Shown here: one piece after another, positions 7,459-59,126 of the stretch | How the letters are laid out: every line of letters starts with the position of its first letter | Position numbering within the stretch: the first letter of the stretch is position 1 | Origin: an uncultured virus (IMG/VR IMGVR_UViG_3300020473_000027) | Taxonomy: Duplodnaviria > Heunggongvirae > Uroviricota > Caudoviricetes | Direction: 5' to 3' (one strand) | Virus record (IMG/VR): IMGVR_UViG_3300020473_000027 | Length of the DNA: 64,000 nucleotides | Position numbers and translations under genes: made by a program | Notes under the pieces: model-generated | Seen by the model: only the letters and a program-made list of their open reading frames with translations | Databases searched by the model: none | Told to the model about the DNA's origin: nothing

Positions 7459-10344
7459 ATGCCAAAAACGATTGCAACATTAAGAAATTTTGCAGGTGGA
7501 GTTAATTCCCAATATAACCCAAGGGATATAGCTGATAATCAATTTGGATTCGCCCAAGACGTAATTGGGGATAGAATTGGTGCAGTTAGAACTATGGGCA
7601 ATGGGAGTGGTACGCCAAGGCAGGTTGACAATTCAGCTTCCAATAAAACAATAGCTGTATTAAGTTCTACTGAGATAAAAGGTAAAATTACAGACGCAAC
7701 TTGTGACTACGATGACGATCCAACTATAGCTATGGATAGTACTGAAAAAATAGAAGCTGGTATGTCTGTTAGTGGAAGTGGTATTCCATCTGGGGCTACC
7801 GTTTCTTCTGTTACAAATGCTACTAGTTTTGAGTTATCAGATGCTACAACTGGTGGAGCTAAAACTAATCAAACATTAACTTTTACGGAAGGTCGCGCAA
7901 ATGCTACTGGTTATGGATTTAAACACTTTGAATTGGATTATGATGAATTAGAAAGAAATACTGGCGAACATTATATAGCAATGGTAAGCGCTGCTGGTGT
8001 GTTAAATATTTGGGACTACACTTTTAACAGTTGGAGTTCTGGGATGAGTCTTGATTTAGGTAGCGATACAAATTGTAAGCCACTTATTACTCCGATTAAC
8101 AATGGTATAAGGGTAGCTGATTCGGAATTAACTAATAATAGTACAATTAAATATTATATGTATGTCAAGAGAAGTCAGCTAGGAGTAAGTAGAAACGCTT
8201 TTTATGTAGGAAGCAACACATTGCCTGCTCCAACTGCTAGTTCAACTCAGAATACTTTGGTCAGTAGTGCAACTTATGACAGTGGACAGTTTAATTTTTC
8301 TGTAGAATCAACAGCAAATGAGAACGGAACATGGACTTCTGCTGATTATGTATTTGGTATATCTTTTATATATGACGGAAATCAGGAATCAGCTGTATCA
8401 ATTTGCGCTGATGGATTAGATAAAAATGATGTAAGTGATGACAGGGCTTTAAATATAACTGTTTATGCGTCAAATACTAGTGGGGCATCAGCTTATGATG
8501 CAAGAGTAACCGGAGCTCGTATTTATTGGAAATATGCATCTGGGCTTTCACTCAGCGGAACATCACCAGCTGCTCAGGGAGAATGGAATTTATTAGTAGA
8601 TGTAGATATAACAGGAACATCGTCAGATAACCACGCCTATGGTATACGGTCTAAGTTAGGTGATAAATTTTCTAATTGGACAACAGCTAATGCTTATACA
8701 GATGCTACTTGTGACACAACTAGTGGCTCTACAACAGTTACTATGGATAGCACAGCTGACCTATTAGTTGGAGTTGGGGTTACGGGAACAGGGGTACCAG
8801 TAGGTGCAACTGTAGCTTCAATAACTAATTCTACAACCTTTGTATTGAGTGCCAATGCGACTGCAAGTAACAGTGATCAAACGTTTACATTTACTAATGC
8901 TGTAGGAACTGGGTATAGGGCTAGTTGCTCTATCGTAGTTACTGATCCACCTATTGACACATATGCTACTTTAAATGGATATAGGAGTAGTGATGGTGCT
9001 TTAATTATAGGAAATGCTGGGGATGGGTATAAAACAGCAATCTTTACAAACAGAAGAATGTTTGTAGCTAATGTAAAAATGACTGGAGCTGATGGAAATC
9101 AAGTACAAGACGCAGATAGAATAATGTATTCTCCAGTTAATAAGCCAGATGTATTTCCACAAAGTCAATTTATAGATGTAATTAAGGGCGACGCTGAGGC
9201 GTATATTAGGCTTGAAGCTGTTAGTGATAGGTTGTTTGCCTTTAAAAAAGATACTCTTTTTATTATTAATATATCAAACCCAAGTCCAGCTGGATGGTTT
9301 CTTGAAGCAACCCACAAGGGAATGGGCGTACTTCATCCCTCCGCTGTTTTTAAAACAGATTTTGGAATATTATGGGTAAACCCTAATGGTTTGTACATAT
9401 ATCAAGAAGGTGGTGGTATAGCAGAATTAACAGAGGGTAAGATAATTAATGGTTATGGTACTGATGACTATGGTTTTAAATCTTGGGGAAAGCTTATTAC
9501 AGCAAATTCTATTGTTGGGTATTCTAATAAAGACAAAGAAGTTATCATTAATTTAGATTGCAGTAGCACAACTTCCGATCAAGATTTTGGAGGAAATGGG
9601 TCTGATGTAGTTGTGTATGATATGGAAACACAATCATTCTGGTATGGGAAAAATAGATTAACAAGCGGAGCTTTTGCTACTAATTTTGATTATGATTGGA
9701 ATGGTGATTTAATATATGGATCTGTTGCTAGTAACGGTGACGTTACAGTGAGATCTTGGCAGTCTGCAAGTCAAAATTCTACAGAAGCTTTTTTCTCAAC
9801 TAAAGATATTGATTTCGGAAGTCCTTCAAAAAAGAAAAAGATTTATAATATTTATGTAACATATAAGCATTCTGGTAGTAATAGTTTAGGGTCTTTTTTA
9901 AGCTACTCTACAAATGGAGGAACAAGCTTTGCAACATACGATGGAGATGGCTCTACGCAGATATCTAATAATACATTAGATCAAGCAACAAGTTGGGAAA
10001 TTCATAAGTTTACATTTACAACACCTGTGGAATGTCAAAGCATGGTTTTAAGATTTAATGCTCCTATAACAGACGGAACATGCGATACGACCAATACAGA
10101 TGCAACTGTAACTATGGATAACACAGGAAGAATAGCAGTTGGAATGTCAGTTTCTGGTACTGGTATACCAGTAGGTGCGACAGTTGCTTCGATAACTAAT
10201 AGCACAACTTTTGAATTAAGTGCGAATGCTACCGCAACCAATTCTAATACAACTCTTACCTTTGGTTCTAGCGCCACAAAGATAGATATTAACGACATTT
10301 CTATTGAGTATAGAGAATTATATGGAAAGGTATCCGCAACATAA
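7459..10344 (+). CDS. Tail tubular/nozzle-like (stabilisation) protein carrying three inserted DxTCD domains
   Basis: 'F.GG.N...PRDI..NQ' N-terminus, 'RIMYSPVNKPDVFP', 'TKDIDFG.P...KKIY'; homologue at 56691. Confidence 0.75.
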   Translation: MPKTIATLRNFAGGVNSQYNPRDIADNQFGFAQDVIGDRIGAVRTMGNGSGTPRQVDNSASNKTIAVLSSTEIKGKITDATCDYDDDPTIAMDSTEKIEAGMSVSGSGIPSGATVSSVTNATSFELSDATTGGAKTNQTLTFTEGRANATGYGFKHFELDYDELERNTGEHYIAMVSAAGVLNIWDYTFNSWSSGMSLDLGSDTNCKPLITPINNGIRVADSELTNNSTIKYYMYVKRSQLGVSRNAFYVGSNTLPAPTASSTQNTLVSSATYDSGQFNFSVESTANENGTWTSADYVFGISFIYDGNQESAVSICADGLDKNDVSDDRALNITVYASNTSGASAYDARVTGARIYWKYASGLSLSGTSPAAQGEWNLLVDVDITGTSSDNHAYGIRSKLGDKFSNWTTANAYTDATCDTTSGSTTVTMDSTADLLVGVGVTGTGVPVGATVASITNSTTFVLSANATASNSDQTFTFTNAVGTGYRASCSIVVTDPPIDTYATLNGYRSSDGALIIGNAGDGYKTAIFTNRRMFVANVKMTGADGNQVQDADRIMYSPVNKPDVFPQSQFIDVIKGDAEAYIRLEAVSDRLFAFKKDTLFIINISNPSPAGWFLEATHKGMGVLHPSAVFKTDFGILWVNPNGLYIYQEGGGIAELTEGKIINGYGTDDYGFKSWGKLITANSIVGYSNKDKEVIINLDCSSTTSDQDFGGNGSDVVVYDMETQSFWYGKNRLTSGAFATNFDYDWNGDLIYGSVASNGDVTVRSWQSASQNSTEAFFSTKDIDFGSPSKKKKIYNIYVTYKHSGSNSLGSFLSYSTNGGTSFATYDGDGSTQISNNTLDQATSWEIHKFTFTTPVECQSMVLRFNAPITDGTCDTTNTDATVTMDNTGRIAVGMSVSGTGIPVGATVASITNSTTFELSANATATNSNTTLTFGSSATKIDINDISIEYRELYGKVSAT

Positions 10345-11906
10345 TGGCTTTTCTTAAAATAGATACATCAAAATTGAACAGGCGTTATGGTAGAGGTGGG
10401 CCAGTTGAAAAGTCTGCTCGAGTAAGTACATTTAATACTCCTAGTAAAAATAGAGCTCCAGATATACCTAAAACTGAAGCAAAAGAAGGAGATGTTTTAA
10501 GCTACTTTGACGACACAAAAGGTAAGGTTTTAACTTCATTCGATGGAGGTTACCAATCTTCCGAAACGTCTAAAGTTTCAGATATGAATAAATTTGACCA
10601 GGGGCAGTATGTTACCACAGTTGATGCTCCTGCTAATGCCAAAGTCCAAACAAGAGGCGAAATACTTTATGCTATGAATAGGAAAAACATAGTTTCTTTT
10701 GGAACTGGCAGTGCGGACTCTACAAGTCAAAAATATATGGATTATTTAGCTGACGATACATGCGATACTACAAGCGGAAGCTCTACTATTACATGTGATA
10801 GTACAAATATTCTTAATGGAAAAATAAAGATTGGAATGAATGTTGTAGGTACTGGAATTCCAGAACATGCAATAGTTAAGACATTTTTAAGCACAACTTC
10901 TTTTGCGATTGGAACATATAAAGGAGCTAACGCTGGTGTTCAGGCTACGAGTTGCTCAACTGTAAATGCTACAGCTAATGGAACTAATGTTGAGTTAAAA
11001 TTTTATGGAACCGTACTATATCTTGATGGGAGCCGAGGTGGTAAACTGGGAAGTATAGTTTATATAGATAGAGGTAATGAATGGTATAAAAATACTGTTG
11101 ACTCTATAATTCTTCCGCGATCTGGAAGTGGAATTAATCCAAATAAGGAATTAGGCAGAGGTGAGGCTTATAGAATCACTTTATTGTTTGGATCCGATGA
11201 GTTTGCTCTTAGAGCAGGTAGTAGCGTAGGAAGTGGTGAAACCTATGGTAATGTAAATAATTCTAATAATTCTGGGGAGCATAAGGAAATACTATGTTCT
11301 GATGGCATTCCTTTTTATTATACTCCTTACAAGTTTGTCGATGCGCATATAAGATGGCTTACCCCTTATCCATCTCAAAAAACACCTGTTGAGCTAGAAA
11401 GTCAGACTAATAGTGATTTCAGACTTGTGTGGACTGGGCGAGCACCGAATCAACTGGTTGGAAATATAAAACATATGGTTAATGTGGCGCAACAGATAAG
11501 ATATGCAGATAGTAGCGATAATACAGTTATAACAGAAATAAAGAATACAAAGATTCCTGCTAAAGCTATTATCTCAAAAGTGGTGGCAAAGGTTGCTAGA
11601 ACTAGTAATTTAACTACACACGCTGTTAACCTTCAGATGTCTGCAACCTCGGGAACTGCAGCTGATTCAAGCATATCATCTGGAACTGAATTACTTGGGG
11701 CTGGAGTAGCAAATACAGATAGCACAGATAGTGCAAGTGCTTCTGATATAGATTTAAAGCAAAGTGGGGATGTATGGATATGTAATGATACCGTGAGAAA
11801 CGGTGGATCTGATCAATATTTATATATCTGCAATGCAGGTACTAGCAATGGAACAACAAATTCAACAGCTGGTACTGTAGAAATATACATAGAATACTAT
11901 GTATAG
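10344..11906 (+). CDS. Tail-associated protein with a DxTCD domain
   Basis: Coupled to the nozzle gene; N-terminal ~90 aa shared with the protein at 59126. Confidence 0.6.
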   Translation: MAFLKIDTSKLNRRYGRGGPVEKSARVSTFNTPSKNRAPDIPKTEAKEGDVLSYFDDTKGKVLTSFDGGYQSSETSKVSDMNKFDQGQYVTTVDAPANAKVQTRGEILYAMNRKNIVSFGTGSADSTSQKYMDYLADDTCDTTSGSSTITCDSTNILNGKIKIGMNVVGTGIPEHAIVKTFLSTTSFAIGTYKGANAGVQATSCSTVNATANGTNVELKFYGTVLYLDGSRGGKLGSIVYIDRGNEWYKNTVDSIILPRSGSGINPNKELGRGEAYRITLLFGSDEFALRAGSSVGSGETYGNVNNSNNSGEHKEILCSDGIPFYYTPYKFVDAHIRWLTPYPSQKTPVELESQTNSDFRLVWTGRAPNQLVGNIKHMVNVAQQIRYADSSDNTVITEIKNTKIPAKAIISKVVAKVARTSNLTTHAVNLQMSATSGTAADSSISSGTELLGAGVANTDSTDSASASDIDLKQSGDVWICNDTVRNGGSDQYLYICNAGTSNGTTNSTAGTVEIYIEYYV

Positions 11907-27721: not shown

Positions 27722-27750
27722 ATAATACTAAACATAAAAAAACGAAACAA
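27722..27750 (-). promoter_or_regulatory. Sigma70-type promoter for the recombination/replication operon
   Basis: TTGTTT-17 nt-TATTAT on the minus strand. Confidence 0.65.
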
Positions 27751-27773
27751 GTTAAATTTATTATATTTTTTAC

Positions 27774-27802
27774 TTGACAGAGTGTTATTTAAGCCTTATA
27801 TT
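27774..27802 (+). promoter_or_regulatory. TTGACA-17-TATATT promoter with TTAAGCCT spacer motif, pointing into a (TA)n tract and antisense to the amidoligase
   Basis: Consensus -35; same motif at 36699, 38818, 41942. Confidence 0.7.
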
Positions 27803-27826
27803 GTTAATACTTGTTCTGGTTGGGTG

Positions 27827-27852
27827 ATATATATAATATATATATATATATA
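27827..27852. repeat. (TA)n tract
   Basis: Read directly; one AA interruption. Confidence 0.9.
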
Positions 27853-27857
27853 CTATA

Positions 27858-29018
27858 CTATATAGTAATCCAGTTACTATCAATATACTCCCTATCTTTA
27901 CTATATACTGGCTTATCAAACTTACGCACCCTTCTTATTATATACTGCTTTATATCGTCTAATTTAAGCATATCTATAAAAGCTTCTAATCCGAGGTCGT
28001 CTTCATCAAACACAAGTTTCTTAACGCTATCATCTTCCCAAGATTCAGGATCAGCATTGTCGTGTATAATCTTACTAATCTCTATTCCCTTCTGTACTAT
28101 TGATTGACATATAGTTATCCAGTTCTTTATCTTAGTAGGGTTGTTGGTTCCAGAATGATATCTAAACTCGATAGTTCCAAGATATACTCTTGCGTGTAAG
28201 TTTAATCCGTGATATCTAGAGTCATTGTACTTTTCAAAAGATGGAATTTGACCACAATTCTGATACCAACTCTGAATAAAATCGGAGTCATCATATATAC
28301 TCATTATTTGGTTTTTACCCATCGGCATTGGCTTACACCAGTTTGTGGTATGTCTTGAGTTTGGCATCATACTCATAATTGTTTTCTCAAAAGACTTCAT
28401 AACCAACATAACTCCTTTGAGTTCTTTGTAAAACAAATCTCTAGCGTCTATGTGTATATGCAATCCACAACTCCTATTCACCCAGTAATTTCCATCTTGA
28501 AGATATCCAGTCATCTTATCTATTTGATAAAACAAATGGTCTCCGTTCATAGGTTTGGATATATATTCGTAACCAACTCCATCTTCATCATTGATACTTC
28601 CATCACTACTTCTTCTCCAGTAATTATGTTGACTATCCTCATCTTCTGTGTATGGACTTATAGTTTCTATTTCAACACCAACCATTCTCTCGAATTTATT
28701 ATTTGAAAAAGTATCTCCCTCTTCTACAATAGAACCAATAATAATATCTCTATGGCTATGCAAGTCAACATCTGAACCTAAATCATCAAAGCAAGACTCG
28801 CAATACATACACTCATATGCTTCACTCCAGCAGCCGTAATCCATATGATCTCCTTCGCCACAGTTGTCGCACCAATAATAGTTTTCTTCAGAGCAGTAAT
28901 GGCAAACGACTTCTCCGTGAGGATTGCGATCTGTATCATCACTACTGAAGTCTTGTTCGCAATCGACACAAGTAAGCTGAGGTTCAGGTTGTTCAGTTGT
29001 TTGGTTTTCTGTAGGCAT
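27858..29018 (-). CDS. Putative amidoligase (COOH-NH2 ligase, glutamine-synthetase-like fold) with N-terminal CxxC repeats
   Basis: 'GVEIE', 'DGSI', 'GYEYIS.P', 'SCGLHIH', 'RY.GLN', 'GTIEFR'. Confidence 0.88.
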   Translation of the reverse strand: MPTENQTTEQPEPQLTCVDCEQDFSSDDTDRNPHGEVVCHYCSEENYYWCDNCGEGDHMDYGCWSEAYECMYCESCFDDLGSDVDLHSHRDIIIGSIVEEGDTFSNNKFERMVGVEIETISPYTEDEDSQHNYWRRSSDGSINDEDGVGYEYISKPMNGDHLFYQIDKMTGYLQDGNYWVNRSCGLHIHIDARDLFYKELKGVMLVMKSFEKTIMSMMPNSRHTTNWCKPMPMGKNQIMSIYDDSDFIQSWYQNCGQIPSFEKYNDSRYHGLNLHARVYLGTIEFRYHSGTNNPTKIKNWITICQSIVQKGIEISKIIHDNADPESWEDDSVKKLVFDEDDLGLEAFIDMLKLDDIKQYIIRRVRKFDKPVYSKDREYIDSNWITI

Positions 29019-29026
29019 ATTTCCTC

Positions 29027-29326
29027 CTATGCTATGCCATAATTAGCAGTTATTATGTAAGCAGCAAGAACGCTAATCTCTTTAAGCCATCCAAGTTTCT
29101 TAAGAGAATTATACAATTCCTCTTCATTCTCAGCAGATATATCTATACCTTCTAACATCTTAACTTGAGATTTAACATAATCCATATATTCATCATAGGA
29201 TTTATCTGCAATAAATGGATTTTTCTTTGCACGTTTGTAGAGCATCTTCATTACATAGCTCTTTGATTTTATCTGTATTGGGTCTGCTATGCCTACAAAT
29301 ACAGCTTTCTTCTTTTTTTCTACCAT
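29027..29326 (-). CDS. Hypothetical protein within the amidoligase module
   Basis: TAATG-coupled to the GATase. Confidence 0.6.
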   Translation of the reverse strand: MVEKKKKAVFVGIADPIQIKSKSYVMKMLYKRAKKNPFIADKSYDEYMDYVKSQVKMLEGIDISAENEEELYNSLKKLGWLKEISVLAAYIITANYGIA

Positions 29327-30534
29327 TATGAATTACCACCAGATATTTGTATAGCTCCACCATACTTCTTTTCGGTAGACTCGCAATATGCACAGAGATT
29401 ATATGAGTTTACAACAACCAGTTCTTTTGCTGGCTGATAATCTCCACAATAATCGCAAGACTTCATATCATACCTATTACCTCCATAAGAGCTACCAGAA
29501 ATATTAAACGAGGTATTATAACCACAGGTATCACATAGGTATCCATTGTAAGTATCTTCAACCTCGTCATATTGAAACTCTTGTTTACATTCTACGCACT
29601 TTACTTTCCAGTCTCCATTCGCGTCTAATCTCAGCTGAGCTTTCGGTTTAGCAACACACCTATAACACATTCCATCTTTTCTGTAAGTATTATCACCACA
29701 GACTTTACAAGAATCTGATATCCTAGAATAGAGGTTACCACCAAATCCGTATCCATCACCATACCCACCATATCCACCTGTATAGCTATATCTAGTATAA
29801 TTCTCATTAGTCTTGACTTTTATAGTATTTTCGTTTGGTGTTCCCCAAAACTCCCCTGTGTTGAACTCATAGACTTCATCAACTGGAAGTTCTTTTATGT
29901 CTATAACAAGACCAGCATCCTTTAACGAAGCTCCGAGAATTTTAGCAGTTGAAGCCCAAAATAGGCATCTTGCTTTTTTCCAGTATGCTACGTGAAGAGG
30001 TCTGCCTTCTTCGTGCATTAGCTTAAGCACTCTATAATCTTCATCAACCCAGCTTAACGCAAAGTCGCCCTCAAGAAGATCGAATACCTCCTGGTACTTT
30101 TCCTTCTTGTTAAGGAGACCGAAGATGACTTCTGAATCAACTTGAATACTCTTTCCTATTTTACTCGCTATCGTATCATAGTTATCTATAATACCATTAT
30201 GAGCACCGATTACACTACCTTTAACAAAGGGATGAGCATTTTGCTCTGTTACCATACCCTTAGTAGCTAATCTGACGTGACCCATAAATATAGTAGTATC
30301 AGCATCAATCTTCTCTAAGATTCCGTGCCAATCCTTACCACATACGAGTTCGTCGGAAGGAGTTAGAGTTTTATATACCAGCTTATCATCTTTTGAGCAA
30401 ATAGCAAATCCAGTAGAATCCTGTCCTCTTACTACCGATTCAAATGTCAAATTGCTGATAATATCCTCTATTCTGTCAAGTTGGGATTCAGATTGCCAGC
30501 CTTCTCGCTTAGCGAATCCGAATATTCCACACAT
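29326..30534 (-). CDS. Class II (Ntn) glutamine amidotransferase with C-terminal CxxC repeats
   Basis: 'MCGIFG', 'RGQDSTG', 'GHVRLAT.G', 'NAHPF', 'HNGII', 'DSEVI'. Confidence 0.93.
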   Translation of the reverse strand: MCGIFGFAKREGWQSESQLDRIEDIISNLTFESVVRGQDSTGFAICSKDDKLVYKTLTPSDELVCGKDWHGILEKIDADTTIFMGHVRLATKGMVTEQNAHPFVKGSVIGAHNGIIDNYDTIASKIGKSIQVDSEVIFGLLNKKEKYQEVFDLLEGDFALSWVDEDYRVLKLMHEEGRPLHVAYWKKARCLFWASTAKILGASLKDAGLVIDIKELPVDEVYEFNTGEFWGTPNENTIKVKTNENYTRYSYTGGYGGYGDGYGFGGNLYSRISDSCKVCGDNTYRKDGMCYRCVAKPKAQLRLDANGDWKVKCVECKQEFQYDEVEDTYNGYLCDTCGYNTSFNISGSSYGGNRYDMKSCDYCGDYQPAKELVVVNSYNLCAYCESTEKKYGGAIQISGGNS

Positions 30535-30580
30535 CTAACTGTTCCTTTCTTTTTTCTGTTAATAGTAATTACTCCGAAAT

Positions 30581-32461
30581 TCATTCAGCCACTACCCATA
30601 CTGGAGGTTCTCCTTGGGGAGATGGATTATTTCTGTCTATCATATCCCTAACATAGGGGATTAGACTATCAGCCTTCATTGCTGATAAGTAATCACTGAA
30701 ATCCTTTGATTCTTTCTGTATAAATAAATCTTTTATTTTATTACTAGTACCTTTGAGAAGATTTGCTCCAAAATCAGATATAGTTAGACAAAACATCATC
30801 CAATTAACTATACTTTGCGAATTGAGACTTCCGTGATGGTATCTGTATTCCACAGTTCCGTGAAGCATTCTGGAATGCATATTTAAACCTCTATATCTTG
30901 AGTCATTATACTTCTCAGTACTAGCATACGTATTGTTCATTTCTTTGTACCAAAGATTGCAAAATTCTCCAATACTCCTTACCTCTAATATAGCTTTTGT
31001 TGGTATCTTGTCGTTCATAGGAGTTGAATATCTATTCTTACTTCTCTCCAGAGGTAACATTTGATATATAAATGGTTCTAATGCTCTAGCAACAACCATT
31101 ATACCTTTTAATTCTGAAACTCCCAAATAAAATGCATCTGTATGCACGTGAATACCACAAGAATTATCTGTATACCACCCATCCTCCAATGCCCAATTAC
31201 AGAAGTCTTCTACTGAACGTAAAGCATCATCACCAACTTCTGGCATCATCATAAATTCTCTTCCACCTTCAGACAATGAACCATCGTGAGTATCAGACCA
31301 ATTTTTTGGATACCCATCTACGTAATCTCCACTATCTTCTAGCTCGGAATGCCATTCATCGTGAACACATTCGATCTCTACAGCTACTGGAGTTTTGCTT
31401 TTATTTAATCTATATATCTTGTCGCCAGGTAAAAGTATTTTACTTATTTGAGACCTACTGAGAGCTCTTGATGGATTTGTCATACCATTAAAACAGGCAA
31501 TATCGTAGCATTTAAAACATAAAAAATCTGAATTAAAATTATATTTATCTTTATCAATATGGATAGAGCTACATCCTCTACATTTAAAAATTCTATTCTC
31601 TTGGCAAAAAAAGCAAACTTTAATCTCTTTATATTCTGGCTCTGGCAAAAGCATAAACCGAAATGATGTATTGCAGTATCTTTTTGTACTCTCACAAACA
31701 TAACAATCATACTCATACTCATCGCAACAAGTATTACAGAGATGTTTGTTGTATCTTAAATTTATGTTCGCCTCTGGGTTTATCCATTCCTCGCATCCAT
31801 AACATCTCACAAATTCTCTAGCCTCAAAATTAATCCTTTTTCCAATCTCTCTAAGAGATTTAATCAGCTTACTTCTTTCAGGGCTTTCAGGTTCAAGGGG
31901 TGAGTTATCTCCATAATTATTTTTAATTTCTAATTCCGTCAAAGGAGAAAGCGTTGCATCTGCCAATTCTTTCGACATATACGCCCACTTACCTCTTTTT
32001 GGCGTTAATAGCTGTATATTTCCGTTGCTCTTATATATGTCAAATATATAACCTATCCTACCATAACCCTCTTCATCGTATCCATCATCAATTTGCTCCT
32101 CAAGAGCAGTATCGAAGGTAACTAATTGACCAACTCTCCAATCCCTTGAATCTGACACTAGTCCTATTTGTTCCCAGTGAAGATATCTCTCTGTATCTAC
32201 TACATTTGAGTTTAATATTACACCACCTGCCGTTTCATCGTCAATTTGTGGCAATCCTCCTGAATCTACGCTACTATCTGTATCTGCTTCAAGGGTAAAC
32301 ATTTCAACTGAGAAATAAGTCTCATAACAATATGGACTATCATCTATATCTCTTAAATCTGTAATCTCGCCAAGAGAATCATAAGCCAAATCTTCCTCGT
32401 GGTGATTGCTCGATCGGAGTAAAAATACTTTTTCTCCTTGATTAAAGTAATACTTAGGCAT
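30581..32461 (-). CDS. Second amidoligase with long N-terminal extension and CxxC repeats
   Basis: 'AVEIE', 'DGSL', 'G.EF', 'SCGIHVH', 'RYRGLN', 'GTVEYR'. Confidence 0.88.
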   Translation of the reverse strand: MPKYYFNQGEKVFLLRSSNHHEEDLAYDSLGEITDLRDIDDSPYCYETYFSVEMFTLEADTDSSVDSGGLPQIDDETAGGVILNSNVVDTERYLHWEQIGLVSDSRDWRVGQLVTFDTALEEQIDDGYDEEGYGRIGYIFDIYKSNGNIQLLTPKRGKWAYMSKELADATLSPLTELEIKNNYGDNSPLEPESPERSKLIKSLREIGKRINFEAREFVRCYGCEEWINPEANINLRYNKHLCNTCCDEYEYDCYVCESTKRYCNTSFRFMLLPEPEYKEIKVCFFCQENRIFKCRGCSSIHIDKDKYNFNSDFLCFKCYDIACFNGMTNPSRALSRSQISKILLPGDKIYRLNKSKTPVAVEIECVHDEWHSELEDSGDYVDGYPKNWSDTHDGSLSEGGREFMMMPEVGDDALRSVEDFCNWALEDGWYTDNSCGIHVHTDAFYLGVSELKGIMVVARALEPFIYQMLPLERSKNRYSTPMNDKIPTKAILEVRSIGEFCNLWYKEMNNTYASTEKYNDSRYRGLNMHSRMLHGTVEYRYHHGSLNSQSIVNWMMFCLTISDFGANLLKGTSNKIKDLFIQKESKDFSDYLSAMKADSLIPYVRDMIDRNNPSPQGEPPVWVVAE

Positions 32462-36648: not shown

Positions 36649-36672
36649 TATATATATATAATATATATATAT
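36649..36672. repeat. (TA)n tract
   Basis: Read directly; one AA interruption. Confidence 0.9.
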
Positions 36673-36698
36673 TAATATTTATCTCCCCACGTAATAAC

Positions 36699-36727
36699 AA
36701 TATAAGCCTTAAGTAGCAGTTTGTCAA
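36699..36727 (-). promoter_or_regulatory. TTGACA-17-TATATT promoter with TTAAGGCT motif
   Basis: Minus strand reads TTGACA aactgctacttaaggct TATATT. Confidence 0.7.
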
Positions 36728-36751
36728 GTTTTATTTTAAATTATTTTTTAC

Positions 36752-36780
36752 TTGTTTCATATTTTTATGTTTTGTAATCT
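36752..36780 (+). promoter_or_regulatory. Sigma70-type promoter TTGTTT-17-TAATCT
   Basis: Homologous to 27722-27750; GTG start 5 nt downstream. Confidence 0.65.
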
Positions 36781-39781: not shown

Positions 39782-40017
39782 TGAAAGAAGTAAAATTTGA
39801 TCTTGTATTGCAAGTTCATGATGAGTTAGACAAAGAAGAATTAGCTGATATGTTAAAAAGATATCTTATTAATAATCAGACTGCTAGTTCAATCGTTCAA
39901 AAAGTTATTGGTGAAAAGGATGCCCCAGAACATTTTAATATATCTTCTATGGGATTAGCTGAGCAAAAAGTTGTTAAAGCAAACAAACCTAAGAAAAAGA
40001 CAAAGACAAAGAAATGA
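39781..40017 (+). CDS. Hypothetical protein
   Basis: Translationally coupled ORF, GGAG SD. Confidence 0.55.
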   Translation: MKEVKFDLVLQVHDELDKEELADMLKRYLINNQTASSIVQKVIGEKDAPEHFNISSMGLAEQKVVKANKPKKKTKTKK

Positions 40018-40364
40018 AATTAGCTGTTTACGGTACACTTCGAAATGGAGATAATAATACTGGCAGGGTAAAGAATACGTCTTTAGTATATCCAGGCCAC
40101 CAAAGATTCCCAGCTATGATTCAAGATTATAAGGGTAAAGGAACAGTGGTTGAAGTTCATGATGTAACTAGTGAAGATATAGCTCAATATGATATGTATG
40201 AAGGTATTAATATTGGATTATACGATAGGGTCAAGGTTGATGTTGAATTAGATTCTGGAGATAAAGAAAGAGTTTGGGCATACGTTGCTGGGCCAAGGCT
40301 TTTGAAGATGGTCGATGTGTTTGAAGAAATTCCAAATGGAGATTGGTACGATAGAAAAGTTTAA
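40014..40364 (+). CDS. Gamma-glutamylcyclotransferase (AIG2-like)
   Basis: 'AVYGTLR.G', 'D.YEG....Y.R..V', 'AWAY'-like segment, 'I..GDW'. Confidence 0.9.
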   Translation: MKLAVYGTLRNGDNNTGRVKNTSLVYPGHQRFPAMIQDYKGKGTVVEVHDVTSEDIAQYDMYEGINIGLYDRVKVDVELDSGDKERVWAYVAGPRLLKMVDVFEEIPNGDWYDRKV

Positions 40365-48057: not shown

Positions 48058-49055
48058 TGGCTACTTTCGAAGCACAAGTAGAGGGTCTTACTAGTCTATC
48101 TATTGATGGCAGTAGTGCACCTACTCAAACAGAACTTACACAATTTCTTACTGACGGAGCTAAAGAAGTTATAAACTCACTTCCTCCAGGATTACTTCCT
48201 CTTTGCGCAGCTCAAGCAACATTTACTTCTACTGCTGCTGGAAGCGAATCTGAAACATTAAACACTGGTAATATTCTTAATGTTCTTAGAAATGATGGAG
48301 ATATAGATCAGCCGTGCAGGCAAATTAGTGCTGATGATAAAGGAAGAGTATCAGATCCTAAAGATATGTCTTATGCGAAAATATCTGATCCTGTTTATTA
48401 TGTTGAAAACAATAAGATAAACGTTTTACCAGATGGAGGTTCTTGTAAGTATTCAGAAGTTCAATACCCAGCTGTTGCCTATGGTGATTCTACTATTAGT
48501 GCAACTTCATTATCTGGAGTAACTGCAACTGCCGCTGATCCGACGGTTTTTACTAAATCAAGTCATGGACTTTCTACTGGCGACGTAGTTAAGTTGTCTA
48601 ATTTTAATGAAATGACAGAAGTAAATGGAATGACAGGTACAGTTACTAAACTTGATGCAAATACATTTGAAGTTAATGGTGTAGCAGCAGATCCAGCTGA
48701 GACTACTGGTGGAAATGTTGTTAAGATGGGAGGTTTTCCAGACGAAGCTGAATATTTAGTTCCATTATATGCATCTGTCAAGGCATTGCAAAATAAGATG
48801 GGAAGTATGTCAGCTGAAATACCTGTAAATTCTGATCAAGATGGAAGCTTCAGTAGTTCTAGCTCAAGTTCCCAGGGATATGAGAAGGTAAGAAATTTAT
48901 TAGAATCCCAGGAAGATATAGAACTTTCAAGCGGAACTATAGCTGCCTTGAGTAGCGAGATGCAACAGTTTGTAGCAGAATATCAATGGTATCAATCGCA
49001 ACAAGCAAAATTAGAAGCTGATTATGAAAAAGGCTTACAAAGATTAAGAGGTTAA
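48057..49055 (+). CDS. Head-tail adaptor-like protein with inserted E1-FCCH-like beta domain
   Basis: Helical N/C termini; insert 'HGLSTGDVV.....MTEVNG....TKLDANTFE'. Confidence 0.6.
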   Translation: MATFEAQVEGLTSLSIDGSSAPTQTELTQFLTDGAKEVINSLPPGLLPLCAAQATFTSTAAGSESETLNTGNILNVLRNDGDIDQPCRQISADDKGRVSDPKDMSYAKISDPVYYVENNKINVLPDGGSCKYSEVQYPAVAYGDSTISATSLSGVTATAADPTVFTKSSHGLSTGDVVKLSNFNEMTEVNGMTGTVTKLDANTFEVNGVAADPAETTGGNVVKMGGFPDEAEYLVPLYASVKALQNKMGSMSAEIPVNSDQDGSFSSSSSSSQGYEKVRNLLESQEDIELSSGTIAALSSEMQQFVAEYQWYQSQQAKLEADYEKGLQRLRG

Positions 49056-52326: not shown

Positions 52327-53923
52327 CGTCAAATTTGATACTAATTCTAGAGTATTTTTATCTAATGATGGTACTGGAAGTGGTAATACAGTATTTGGAA
52401 AGAATGCTGGAGCAAGTATAGATAGTGGAACAAATAACAATGTATTCATAGGTGAAAATGTAGCAGATGCAACATTAGTTGATGCTATTGAGAATGTTGC
52501 AATAGGTTATGGGGCATTGAGTGCATTAACGCAAGGTGATAAAAATATTACTATTGGATACTCTGCTGGTGAATCTATTACCGAAGGATATCAAAATGTT
52601 TTAATAGGAGATAGAACTGGAGATTTAATTACAGATGCAAAAAATTGTGTAATTATTGGTAGTGGAGCTGGAACAAGCAGTATTACAGACGCTGCAAGTG
52701 GAACTATTGCTATAGGAAGTCAAGCATTAGAAGACCTTACAAGTGGAGACCAAAATATTGCTATAGGATATCAATCTTTAAAAGGTGTAAGAACTGGAGG
52801 TCAGAATATCGCTATAGGATATGAGGCGATGGAAGATTCTGATAATGGAGAGAATCACAATATTGCAATAGGTACAGAAGTTTTAAAATCTGCAAATAGT
52901 GATAATTTGTCAGCTAATATTGCAATAGGAACAAGGGCTATGGGGTCTGTTGATTCTGGAGAGGGAGTTGCAAATTGTGTAGCTATTGGATATCAAGCTC
53001 TTCGAAATGCAGAAGATGAAGCTGATGGAACTGTTGCCATTGGAAAAGAGGCATTAACAGCACTTACAACTGGTATAGAATGTATAGCTATAGGACAGAA
53101 CGCACTTGCTAATATTACAACTTCTACTGGTATGATAGCCATAGGTGACGATGCTGGGAAAGATTGTGATTCTACTGGCTCAACTCCTGATGGTTGTATT
53201 TATATTGGAGCGTCTTGTGGTCAAAATTTAGATGATGGAACAAGAAATACAGCCGTTGGATTCGAAGCGATGACGGGTAATACCGAGAATGCGAATACTC
53301 CTAATTATAGTGTTGCGGTTGGATGGAAAGCTTTGACATCTATAACAGATGGAGACAGGAACGTTACGATTGGAGCTGAGTCTGGTACAAATCTTGAAAG
53401 TGGTAGCTACAATGTCCTTGTTGGATATGGGACTCAGGCAAGTGCTGCTGATTCAGAGAATGCAGTAGTTATTGGTTACGATATATCAGGTGGTGGAAAT
53501 GAAGTTACGATTGGAAAAGCGTCTAATGTTCTAACTAATAATTTTACTTCAGGCTCAACTTGGGCTCAAAGCTCAGACGAAAGAATAAAAACAGATATTA
53601 AGGATGATAACTTAGGACTTGACTTTATTAAAGAATTAAAAACCAAAACTTTTAAGTGGAAACCTTCAAACGAAGTGCCTAAAGAATTAACAGAGCATTA
53701 CAATGAAGTAAACCAAAAAAATACAGATGTTGTAATGCATGGAATGATAGCACAAGAAGTAAAAGCAGCCTTAGATAAATCTGGAGTTGACACTTTTGGA
53801 GGCTGGTCGGAAAGAGCAGATGGTTCACAAAGTATATCAAGGGAAATGTTTGTAATACCATTGATTAAAGCAGTTCAAGAATTATCAGCTAAAGTAGAAG
53901 AATTAGAATCAAAATTAAAATAA
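52319..53923 (+). CDS. Tail fibre/spike with NIAIG repeats and S74-type chaperone
   Basis: C-terminal part identical to the protein at 808. Confidence 0.9.
   Translation: MANVKFDTNSRVFLSNDGTGSGNTVFGKNAGASIDSGTNNNVFIGENVADATLVDAIENVAIGYGALSALTQGDKNITIGYSAGESITEGYQNVLIGDRTGDLITDAKNCVIIGSGAGTSSITDAASGTIAIGSQALEDLTSGDQNIAIGYQSLKGVRTGGQNIAIGYEAMEDSDNGENHNIAIGTEVLKSANSDNLSANIAIGTRAMGSVDSGEGVANCVAIGYQALRNAEDEADGTVAIGKEALTALTTGIECIAIGQNALANITTSTGMIAIGDDAGKDCDSTGSTPDGCIYIGASCGQNLDDGTRNTAVGFEAMTGNTENANTPNYSVAVGWKALTSITDGDRNVTIGAESGTNLESGSYNVLVGYGTQASAADSENAVVIGYDISGGGNEVTIGKASNVLTNNFTSGSTWAQSSDERIKTDIKDDNLGLDFIKELKTKTFKWKPSNEVPKELTEHYNEVNQKNTDVVMHGMIAQEVKAALDKSGVDTFGGWSERADGSQSISREMFVIPLIKAVQELSAKVEELESKLK
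53117..53790. repeat. 674-bp perfect direct repeat, copy 2
   Basis: Identical to 1960-2633. Confidence 0.95.
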
Positions 53924-56690: not shown

Positions 56691-59126
56691 ATGCCTAAAC
56701 AAGTTCATTATATTAGAGACTTCTCAGGTGGTATAAATAGCCAAAGAAACCCGAGAGATATTGCGGAAAATCAATCTCCCTTTTGTCAAGATGCTATGGG
56801 CGATAGAATGGGCTTACTGCGAACCATGGGTAATGGTTCTGGTGCGCCTCGACAAATCAATAATTCTGGCTCTACTAAAACTGTTGCAGCTCTTGGTAGC
56901 ACTGATATGCTTGAAGCTAGAGGTCATGGCTTTAAACATTTTGAATTAGATTACGATGAAGGTGGGAGTGAAGAAGAAGGTGGTGAGCATTATTTTGCCG
57001 TTGTAGATGAAGGTGGAGAGCTTAATGTATGGGATTATAGTAATAATAACTGGACAGCTCCCAGCGGAGGAGATTTAAATTCTAGCGCTGGAGATGTAAA
57101 AGCGGATATTATTTCTTTAGATAATGGGTTAAGAATCCATGATACTGATTTAAGCAATAGTAGCACACCTATATATTATAAACACATTAAGCGCAGTCAA
57201 CTTACAACTGATAGGTCTGGTTTTTATGCTGGAGCTACGACTTTACTTCCTCCTACTGCTGGAGACCATACCGGCTCTGGATATTTAGACGGTTCTGTTA
57301 ATTTTGATATAACCGCTGAAACGGATGCAGCGAGTATTGGCTCATGGAAAGATACAGATTATGTATTTGCTTATAGTTTTGTGTACGATGGAAATCAAGA
57401 ATCAACACTAAGAGTTTGTCCAACAACATTATCAGATGGGAGCGTAACTGCAAATAAACCATTTAAGGTGGATGTAAGAGCGGCCAATGCGACAGGGGCA
57501 ACAGATTTTGATGCCCGTATAACAGGAGCTCGTATTTACTGGAAGTATTACGATGAGGCGCAGGAAAAAATAGCAGAAGGTGAGTGGAACTTATTTGTTG
57601 ATTGTGACTTCACAGGAGGCATTAAAGATGCAACTTGTGATACTACCAATAACGATGAAACTGTTACTATGGATGACACAACTGTTATTAAAGTTGGAAT
57701 GGCTATTACCGGCTCTAATATACCAGCGAATACAAAGGTTGCCTCTATTACGAATAGTACCACTTTTGAAATGACCAATAAAGCTACAGGGGCTGCTACA
57801 AATACTACTTTAGTTTTTAGAGGCTCTGATAAAAGTTTTGGTATACGCGGTAAGCTAAGTGATGAGTATACTATGTGGACACGCGCAGCTGGTGGAGATT
57901 ATACAGCGACTATTATTTTACAAGACCCCTCTATTGACACTTATGCTACTATTAATGGATATGGAAGTAACGAAGGAAAGTTGTATATAGGCGATTCTGC
58001 GGATGGATATAAGGCATCAGTATTCGCCAACCGAAGAATGTTCGTTGGTGGTGTTAAAATGACGTTTGAAGATGGTATACAAAGGCAGATGCTTGATAGA
58101 ATAATGTATTCACCTGTTAATAAACCAGATGTATTCCCATTAAGTAATTTTATTGACGTTGTACAGGGTGATGCGGAACCTTATATTAGATTAGAATCTG
58201 TAGGTAATAAGCTCTTCGCTTTTAAATCGGATAATTTATATGTAATTAATATTGGAAATTCTAATCCTGCTGGTTGGTATTTAGAAAGCACACATAAAGG
58301 TATGGGTGTTATGTCAAGTGGAGCAGTATTTAAAACAGATTTTGGTTTGGTTTGGGCTAACGTAAATGGTCTTTATGCATATCAAGCAGGTGGGGGGCTT
58401 ACAGAATTTACTGAAGATAAATTATTAAGTGGTTATAAAACCGATGGTTACAGCAAACCTTCGTGGGGTAAATTAATTACAGCTGGAACTGTAGTTGGTT
58501 ATGATAAAAAAGAAAAAGAAGTTGTTGTCTTGTTAGATTCTGGGTCTGTAACAAACGACCAAGCTTTTGGAGGAAATGGTGCAGATGTTGTTGTATATGA
58601 TATAGAAACTAAATCTTTTTTCTATGGTAAGAATAGATTATTAAGCGCTGGTATTGCATCTAACTTTGATTACGATTGGAATGGTGATTTGGTCTATGCC
58701 AGTGAAACAAGCGACTCTGTAGATATTAAAGCTTGGCAATCAGATGACCAAACATCTACCGCCTTTTTATACCAGACAAAAGATTTTGATTTTGGTATAC
58801 CTTCAAGGTATAAAAAGATATATGCTGTATACTTAACCTATAAGCATTCTGATAGTAACGCTGCAACAACATTTTTAAAATATGCAAAAGACGGTGGAAC
58901 TTCATTTGTTTCTGTTGATGGGGATGGCTCTACTGAACTAGCAACCAACTCGCTTGACCAAGCAGCAACTTTTGAAATTCATAAAATTACTTTTACAACA
59001 CCCTTAAAATGTCAAAGTATTGCGCTGCAATTAAATGGGCCTACAAGCAATGCAACCAAGCTTGAGATTAACGATATTGGTATTGAATATAGACTATTGC
59101 CAGCAGCGAAGGTAGCAGCTACATAA
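56691..59126 (+). CDS. Tail tubular/nozzle-like protein with one DxTCD insertion
   Basis: Colinear with the protein at 7459. Confidence 0.75.
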   Translation: MPKQVHYIRDFSGGINSQRNPRDIAENQSPFCQDAMGDRMGLLRTMGNGSGAPRQINNSGSTKTVAALGSTDMLEARGHGFKHFELDYDEGGSEEEGGEHYFAVVDEGGELNVWDYSNNNWTAPSGGDLNSSAGDVKADIISLDNGLRIHDTDLSNSSTPIYYKHIKRSQLTTDRSGFYAGATTLLPPTAGDHTGSGYLDGSVNFDITAETDAASIGSWKDTDYVFAYSFVYDGNQESTLRVCPTTLSDGSVTANKPFKVDVRAANATGATDFDARITGARIYWKYYDEAQEKIAEGEWNLFVDCDFTGGIKDATCDTTNNDETVTMDDTTVIKVGMAITGSNIPANTKVASITNSTTFEMTNKATGAATNTTLVFRGSDKSFGIRGKLSDEYTMWTRAAGGDYTATIILQDPSIDTYATINGYGSNEGKLYIGDSADGYKASVFANRRMFVGGVKMTFEDGIQRQMLDRIMYSPVNKPDVFPLSNFIDVVQGDAEPYIRLESVGNKLFAFKSDNLYVINIGNSNPAGWYLESTHKGMGVMSSGAVFKTDFGLVWANVNGLYAYQAGGGLTEFTEDKLLSGYKTDGYSKPSWGKLITAGTVVGYDKKEKEVVVLLDSGSVTNDQAFGGNGADVVVYDIETKSFFYGKNRLLSAGIASNFDYDWNGDLVYASETSDSVDIKAWQSDDQTSTAFLYQTKDFDFGIPSRYKKIYAVYLTYKHSDSNAATTFLKYAKDGGTSFVSVDGDGSTELATNSLDQAATFEIHKITFTTPLKCQSIALQLNGPTSNATKLEINDIGIEYRLLPAAKVAAT

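Follow-up and report, generated by a model that had tools for sequence, protein, structure and literature searches.

We analysed a window of 64,000 nucleotides taken from the 73.5-kb IMG/VR record IMGVR_UViG_3300020473_000027, an uncultured tailed virus, in which a module of 68 amino acids (aa), here called the DxTCD domain, is repeated within virion proteins. The domain is an exchangeable accessory domain and not a self-mobile element: it is optional among close orthologues and occurs in unrelated virion proteins of unrelated viruses. The overall picture that we favour, with moderate confidence, is that of a portable, predicted beta-barrel which likely gains new loops rarely, likely spreads afterwards by homologous recombination and might serve as an outward-facing knob of weak adhesion.

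Profile search detected exactly five copies, whether run on the window or on the entire record, with E-values from 1e-23 to 1e-34, the next-best match in the window having an E-value of 0.6. All five are in frame on the + strand. Three of them are located in the 961-aa product of the nozzle gene (tail tube/head-closure; 7459..10344, + strand) of a phage named X. Insert 1 (7678..7902) adds 75 codons to the empty allele and contains a core barrel of subtype A (7687-7890, aa 77-144), insert 2 (8683..8919) has 79 codons replacing 5 (core 8695-8898, aa 413-480) and insert 3 (10066..10272) has 69 codons replacing 3 (core 10066-10269, aa 870-937), the junctions varying by site. Copy 4 (10746..11009), an 88-aa variant with two extra loops and additional cysteines, covers aa 135-222 of the protein encoded by the gene after the X nozzle. 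Copy 5 (57621..57824) covers aa 311-378 of the nozzle of a second phage, Y (56691..59126, + strand; 811 aa), which is 57% identical to the X nozzle. The window copies are mutually 40-68% identical. A previous sequence-only reading of this DNA had listed these five copies, and profile search found them alone. It had also placed the Y copy about 25 residues away from X copy 2 and held that X and Y share no insertion site. A two-sequence alignment of the X and Y nozzles merged X copy 2 with the Y copy, but the alignment of 39 orthologues separated them by ~22-25 residues (reference positions 306 and ~331), in agreement with both statements. The claim that copies 2 and 3 differ largely by synonymous changes was partly right: 25 of the 68 codons differ synonymously, but 22 others differ non-synonymously.

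The isolated domain was modelled as a small six-stranded beta-barrel with a predicted local distance difference test (pLDDT) score of 79, two of the five models being above 75. The best structural match was the Bridgette Gp7 protein (PDB 8ECI; Foldseek E 0.003, template modelling (TM) score 0.75, Z 7.9), with a root-mean-square deviation (rmsd) of 2.0 over 65 residues and 29-31% identity. Further matches were a phage tail tube (Z 7.0), the phage Chi tail tip (6.7), human E1 FCCH (6.5), and tailspikes and endosialidase (5.7-6.4; the endosialidase barrel, PDB 4hiz, 5.7 with 23% identity). The top seven matches aligned 64-68 of the 68 residues with rmsd of 2.0-2.6 and Z of 6.2-7.9, and many predicted phage virion proteins also matched the model. 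The predicted structure is that of an FCCH-like six-stranded beta-barrel, which designates a fold class and not a descent. None of 93 copies reached a Pfam cut-off, and none matched PF16190 (E1 FCCH) at E 0.05 (gathering cut-off 29.5 bits), so that the domain is not a PF16190 member; in the record the PF16190 model found 48543-48680 only. Searches of Pfam, PHROGs and the sequences of solved structures gave nothing significant, the best PHROG match being phrog_10467 (unknown function, E 8e-5). Matches to MlaD, CEL-III and ATP synthase barrels were weak and below cut-off. The family thus has no Pfam or PHROG model, despite a profile that matches 2792 representatives at E 0.001 and 553 clusters at E 1e-10.

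The X nozzle itself has no Pfam match over cut-off and no named PHROG match. Its predicted model (pLDDT 79) matched the podophage tail chains of SU10, A4, the crAss001 muzzle, T7 gp12 and P22 gp10 (E 3e-16 to 7e-9, TM about 0.3), and the gene sits between lysis and ejection-protein genes. The predicted fold, that of the T7 gp12/P22 gp10/SU10 nozzle, and the place of the gene both point to a podophage nozzle. In the full nozzle model every insert exhibits one common strand pattern, with long first and last strands continuing host strands. From the secondary structure string only, we read the inserts as a barrel on a hairpin stalk; both insert ends are predicted to lie together, the host fold surviving. 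The gene after the nozzle (10344..11906, + strand; 520 aa) has no family match in Pfam or PHROGs and, from its position only, encodes a probable tail appendage. The domain was present in 15 of its 42 homologous open reading frames (ORFs), several of the remaining ORFs being incomplete.

Occupancy of the sites was compared among 39 distinct close nozzles, aligned from a set of 44 loci plus others. No copy was found in 26 of them (a few cut at the 5' end, one beyond site 1), and the other 13 have copies distributed across four loops. Empty orthologues have 739-751 aa, and their loops are short and alike across the deepest split. Site 1 is filled in six nozzles, belonging to three host clades, and site 2 in three. 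Six nozzles have site 3 filled, L034, L090 and L091 with a different, divergent variant, and four have site Y filled, namely Y and L032, plus L113 and L114 with a divergent variant; site Y is empty in the sister pair L111 and L112. At sites 3 and Y one loop is therefore occupied by two different variants. Three further, approximate sites come from four distant nozzles, of which three could be aligned (31-33% identity). The empty site 2 was seen directly in a DNA contig of run X13, from another study, in which 8682 and 8929 are separated by 24 other letters, in agreement with the empty allele. In the T7-like nozzle family, nine domain matches were found in eight proteins at several sites, other members having clean empty loops.

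A sixth plug-in barrel, of a different family, is present in the window. This E1_FCCH barrel (48504..48734, + strand; 77 codons), over the Pfam cut-off, lies in a 332-aa gene of the neck/adaptor region of X, and a near-identical 255-aa adaptor allele (P0315) is without it. An adaptor homologue at 28% identity holds the DxTCD domain in the very loop where X has E1_FCCH, the DxTCD domain being found in none of 120 closer adaptor homologues. As close relatives show the same loops unoccupied, occupied, or occupied by a different barrel, this is an unusually well-resolved natural domain insertion, in which the gain of a site is separable from the spread of the filled allele and the inserts map the nozzle loops tolerant of a folded domain.

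The numerous independent sites might suggest a selfish DNA or RNA element inserting in frame (like a Rickettsia palindromic element, a miniature inverted-repeat transposable element (MITE), an intein or an intron), possibly aided by an enzyme acting in trans, and the nested copy in P0035, a co-transfer of flanks resembling homing and the cysteine near the N-terminus would fit with it. This explanation is very improbable and largely refuted by the properties of the insertions. The longest word shared across the two junctions averaged 5.19, and same-gene controls gave 4.99 (difference 0.20 ± 0.13, n 63); an excess of direct repeats obtained with controls across copies (5.19 against 4.73) was gone with the same-gene controls. 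No terminal inverted repeat was detected (4.78 against 4.59 in the control). Insert lengths and junction residues differ by site. The folding of 25 copies gave no RNA structure (mean z -0.25), and all conserved columns have freely varying synonymous codons, serine being encoded by both of its codon classes. Codon skew was considered as a DNA motif and rejected, 6 of 64 columns having p < 0.001, scattered and never fixed. The marks of MITEs and palindromic elements (inverted repeats, palindrome, target duplication, DNA conservation) are absent, although old insertions may have lost them. No intein/Hint family matched any of the 93 copies; the module has 68 residues against at least 130 and ends with Thr-Leu-Thr-Phe, not His-Asn. 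No transposase, integrase, reverse transcriptase or homing endonuclease was found among the 69 window ORFs scanned with PHROGs, many of which are matchless. All copies found lie in ORFs, nearly all virion-like, and not in random genes. In one RNA sequencing run, made up of contigs with patchy cover, no splice joint was seen; self-splicing of the domain from RNA is unlikely because of the open frame and the protein-level selection. The sequence-only reading had likewise seen no transposase, target-site duplication or intein motif, as is the case in the window ORF scans, the junction tests and the 93 copies.

At fourfold-degenerate positions, pairs of window copies at different sites are 0.22-0.56 identical (12-31 sites each; chance 0.31), and copies in different host families have a mean of 0.32 over 3963 pairs, the single high pair, L008/L012, being one protein split by clustering. 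The third-position guanine-cytosine (GC) content of the domain tracks that of the host gene (rho 0.79, n 98), hence the copies are long resident. Since fourfold identity between sites or host families is at or near the chance level and GC content follows the host, the gains of new sites are old. The hopping, frame-preserving domain described by the sequence-only reading is thus retained for its independent in-frame gains at several loops, but not for an ongoing hopping. Movement at a same site, with flanking host DNA, is more recent. On the host tree, sites 1 and 3 require three changes each, with empty sisters, and for site 1 the empty sister of each carrier clade is well supported. Carrier and empty sister are 55-80% identical over ~100 codons around site 1, the rest of the gene being mostly at 80-99%, whereas carriers of different clades share 87-95% identity in the first 20 codons that follow the insert. 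Ordinary homologous recombination suffices here, because the nozzle genes are mosaic elsewhere too. We propose that the domain would enter a new loop rarely, likely via non-homologous recombination, and that the filled allele would then spread among related phages, likely by homologous recombination with its flanks.

Sites of ancestral origin followed by differential loss, or a neutral passenger tolerated in loops, would be an improbable alternative to this rare entry. In its favour, sites 2 and Y need a single change each on the host tree, and precise loss by recombination with the empty allele is also possible. However, the few fixed ancestral sites with differential loss that the sequence-only reading had named as the outcome contradicting it were not found, since the sites differ, 26 of the 39 nozzles are empty, their short loops resembling one another on both sides of the deepest split, and monophyly of all 14 nozzle copies on a joint tree was rejected by the approximately unbiased (AU) test (p-AU 0.02; 42 hand-chosen rows and 69 columns, divergent variants left out). 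The 102-row domain tree is a quick version in which 55 of 99 forks are open, and our reading uses the 42-row tests only. A neutral passenger is at variance with a domain that is conserved as well as the nozzle core, or better.

The sample of carriers leans to close relatives (best 80 of 218 pattern matches and best 150 of 2792 profile matches). The 102 IMG/VR carrier ORFs formed 20 host clusters, including giant proteins and small proteins of 115-190 aa, and 137 proteins at 80 bits or more formed 48 clusters. Three other tail/head-closure families and a virion-protein family (phrog_457, 376, 578, 3287) are among the carrier clusters. A subtype A copy had no match in 50,697 GenBank phage records. 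The giant proteins of L059, L058, L030 and L018 exhibit a domain variant with a 10-residue extension in the first loop, and several subtypes can coexist within one giant protein, of up to ~6400 aa. In P0035 (aa 142-274) one domain copy is nested in another. Tandem repeats of distant relatives were seen in proteins that also have autotransporter (PATR), PEP-CTERM, flagellin or RHS domains. For 3 of 10 such proteins looked up, a Verrucomicrobia or Planctomycetota name appears in the record of the protein itself or of a cluster member (clusters 2 and 4 are taken as two proteins, with three records). In the cellular genomes scanned no full-length match was obtained; of the 15 partial ones, Verrucomicrobia account for 13.

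Among six carrier contigs of 95-118 kb that we probed, PolB was present in 5/5 tested, and the one polymerase tested had haloviruses as best matches (23-25% identity). A thermosome-type chaperonin was also present in 5/5, with 335-420 bits for thermosome against at most 60 for GroEL, below both cut-offs. The MCM model PF00493 matched 0/5 contigs, and magrovirus replisome proteins are reported to be too divergent for simple searches (PMC5434244). Halovirus-related family B DNA polymerase and thermosome-type chaperonin are magrovirus features (PMC5434244; general background in PMC10160649), by which the ~100-kb carrier contigs are probably viruses of Marine Group II archaea. At G005:C1:70915-72482 the family B polymerase is in two pieces; a split family B polymerase is described for group B magroviruses (PMC5434244). 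X is a bacteriophage, because it encodes an endolysin, a weak holin match, a lytic transglycosylase domain and a DnaB helicase, and all sequencing runs containing X are marine or aquatic. X copy 1 and the copy of a probable archaeal virus (L042, G002) are 76% identical, with a fourfold identity of 0.29.

The sequence of the domain is strongly conserved. Over 645 pairs of subtype A across host families, the mean amino-acid identity is 77% for a fourfold identity of 0.32 (chance 0.31); in comparison, 207 equally saturated nozzle pairs average 67%, and nozzle windows of 68 residues reach 91% at the 95th percentile. In the most extreme pair, one of putatively unrelated host proteins with L020 as a member, 64 of 68 residues are identical with 22 identical codons, 42 synonymous differences and three serine codon-class switches. 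Since the solved chains closest in fold share at most 31% identity with the domain, a specific conserved function is likely. The domain is acidic and rich in Thr, Ser and Asn. We infer its surface exposure from the fold relatives, and the barrel would act as an outward-facing knob of weak adhesion. Our guess is that ligand contact would be calcium-assisted, of low affinity and directed to a host-independent marine polymer or surface, because this acidic, Thr/Ser/Asn-rich domain is nearly unchanged across viruses with very different hosts.

Weak adhesion is our best guess, and shielding or modification comes second. With the same origin and spread, the domain might instead shield the particle, either as a knob that protects or stabilises it or as a scaffold to be modified (through N-x-T sequons or the single conserved cysteine, by cross-linking), which we find rather unlikely. 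The acidic, hydroxyl-rich make-up would suit this role, as would the excess of N-x-S/T motifs (212 against 139 ± 11 in shuffles) and a cysteine conserved in 85 of the 92 filled cells of its column; disulfide links between tail-tube rings are described in a siphovirus, not via the FCCH domain (PMC13576161). However, the copies are not independent, so that the sequon count is no test, many copies have Ser, Ala or Thr in place of the sequon Asn, which is usual for turns, and fold relatives at most 31% identical indicate that folding alone does not need 77-94% conservation. Extending the adhesion knob further, we suggest only tentatively a pan-viral marine surface tag, a barrel that selection would keep near-invariant, common to bacteriophages and archaeal viruses and recognising something sea-wide and not host-bound; gel particles, a widespread polysaccharide, a mineral or a modifying enzyme may be the target. 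If true, such a tag would be a purified handle on ocean viruses that stick to particles or avoid them, and if the conservation reflects one ligand, a 68-residue protein would make the old, unverified idea of weak accessory binding through phage surface domains directly testable.

Several observations weigh against the combination of barrel, rare entry, homologous spread and adhesion. The fold scores are middling, the best Z of 7.9 being below the caution mark of 8 of the tool. The sample favours close relatives, so that the 77% is not family-wide; subtype B averages 49% identity. Aromatic residues are nearly absent (W 0%, Y 1.4%). Most glycan-binding modules differ from the domain in this respect, and the scarcity argues against a classical carbohydrate-binding module. 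Mosaicism of the nozzle genes is also found away from the inserts, and at site 3 the flanks give a weaker signal. A tree holding together the seven X-type copies, from three X-type sites, was not rejected (p-AU 0.14), and copies of site 2 and site 3 reach 79% identity with a fourfold identity of ~0.5; copying within a gene or genome may explain some sites, notably 2 and 3. No fresh new-site insertion was found in the sampled copies, and we infer the step of entry into a new site by exclusion only.

The record is a chimera of two phages, X and Y, and comprises two related podophage gene sets ~51 kb apart. A 674-bp exact repeat (53117..53790, identical to 1960-2633) in the tail-spike gene forms the X/Y joint. 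In three of four sequencing runs, which may include the source sample, the contig depth over this repeat is about the sum of the depths of both sides. The fourth run has the left side but almost nothing of the right one, and its contig crossing the repeat continues with the X letter. X is therefore a 51,157-bp circle (1960-53116), which also encodes the terminase, portal and capsid in the region of 38-52 kb, and Y is represented by the flanks of the record only. X and Y are ~30% different elsewhere, yet share this exact stretch in the tail-spike gene, which suggests that a receptor-binding segment was recently exchanged. In homologues of the gene following the Y nozzle, an intein/Hint-like segment was observed (L032:4538-5989, L113:3428-4333, also L112 and L114); PF14890 matches are weak and below cut-off, and the 324-aa gene of Y is without the segment. 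On the - strand, two amidoligase-family genes stand on either side of a glutamine amidotransferase (27858-32461), and a gamma-glutamyl cyclotransferase is encoded apart from them at 40014-40364; together they would be a possible peptide or cell-wall modifying set. An inverted 135-bp repeat with 75% identity (27726-27857 and 36651-36776), mostly outside long ORFs, is possibly a shared promoter or regulatory element.

No paper on the domain family or its spread was found in open-licence PubMed Central and bioRxiv; other literature may hold one. The beta-barrel domain of phage endosialidases (PF12195; PDB 4hiz) has a sialic-acid site; it shares the fold class of the DxTCD domain but is a fixed part of the enzyme. 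E1 FCCH (PF16190), found on the tail tubes gp39 and gp13 of family PF08813, is like the domain a six-stranded barrel, as predicted here, and optional on virion proteins, and both can occupy one adaptor loop. It is also the named Atlas cluster nearest to the domain (0.86-0.87), which is a lead only; comparison of profiles between the domain and the window's own FCCH copy gave a probability of 0.5%. The domain is inserted in loops at many sites and is far more conserved, whereas FCCH is fused near a terminus. Two tail tubes carry outward-facing FCCH barrels (PMC13576161), and PMC13612043 reports a local match only. Gp7 of the Arthrobacter phage Bridgette is a capsid decoration protein exposed on the virion outside; it is a free 124-aa protein forming dimers on the capsid, whereas the domain is covalently held within other proteins (bioRxiv 2022.09.09.507160). 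Small carriers of the domain, of 115-140 aa, also exist.

Fraser et al. 2006 reportedly described Ig-like accessory domains of tailed phages. Ig-like domains (PMC8718954) and the BACON domains of crAss-like phages (PMC6949934) are optional surface domains exchanged among unrelated phages, as is the case here, but they have a different fold and occur mostly as terminal fusions or tandem arrays. For both, a weak carbohydrate binding was proposed, which according to a review is still unverified (PMC8718954). Rickettsia palindromic elements resemble the domain by their in-frame insertion in unrelated genes at many sites, but they are palindromic DNA of ~150 bp in metabolic genes (PMC10969869); the domain, unlike them, has no palindrome or DNA-level conservation and is under selection as a folded protein. 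Near-invariance across unrelated host proteins is a feature of the DxTCD domain that the available parts of the Ig-like and BACON papers do not describe, and what sets the domain apart from ordinary cases is that its sequence is strongly conserved between unrelated proteins and, probably, also between viruses of bacteria and of archaea.

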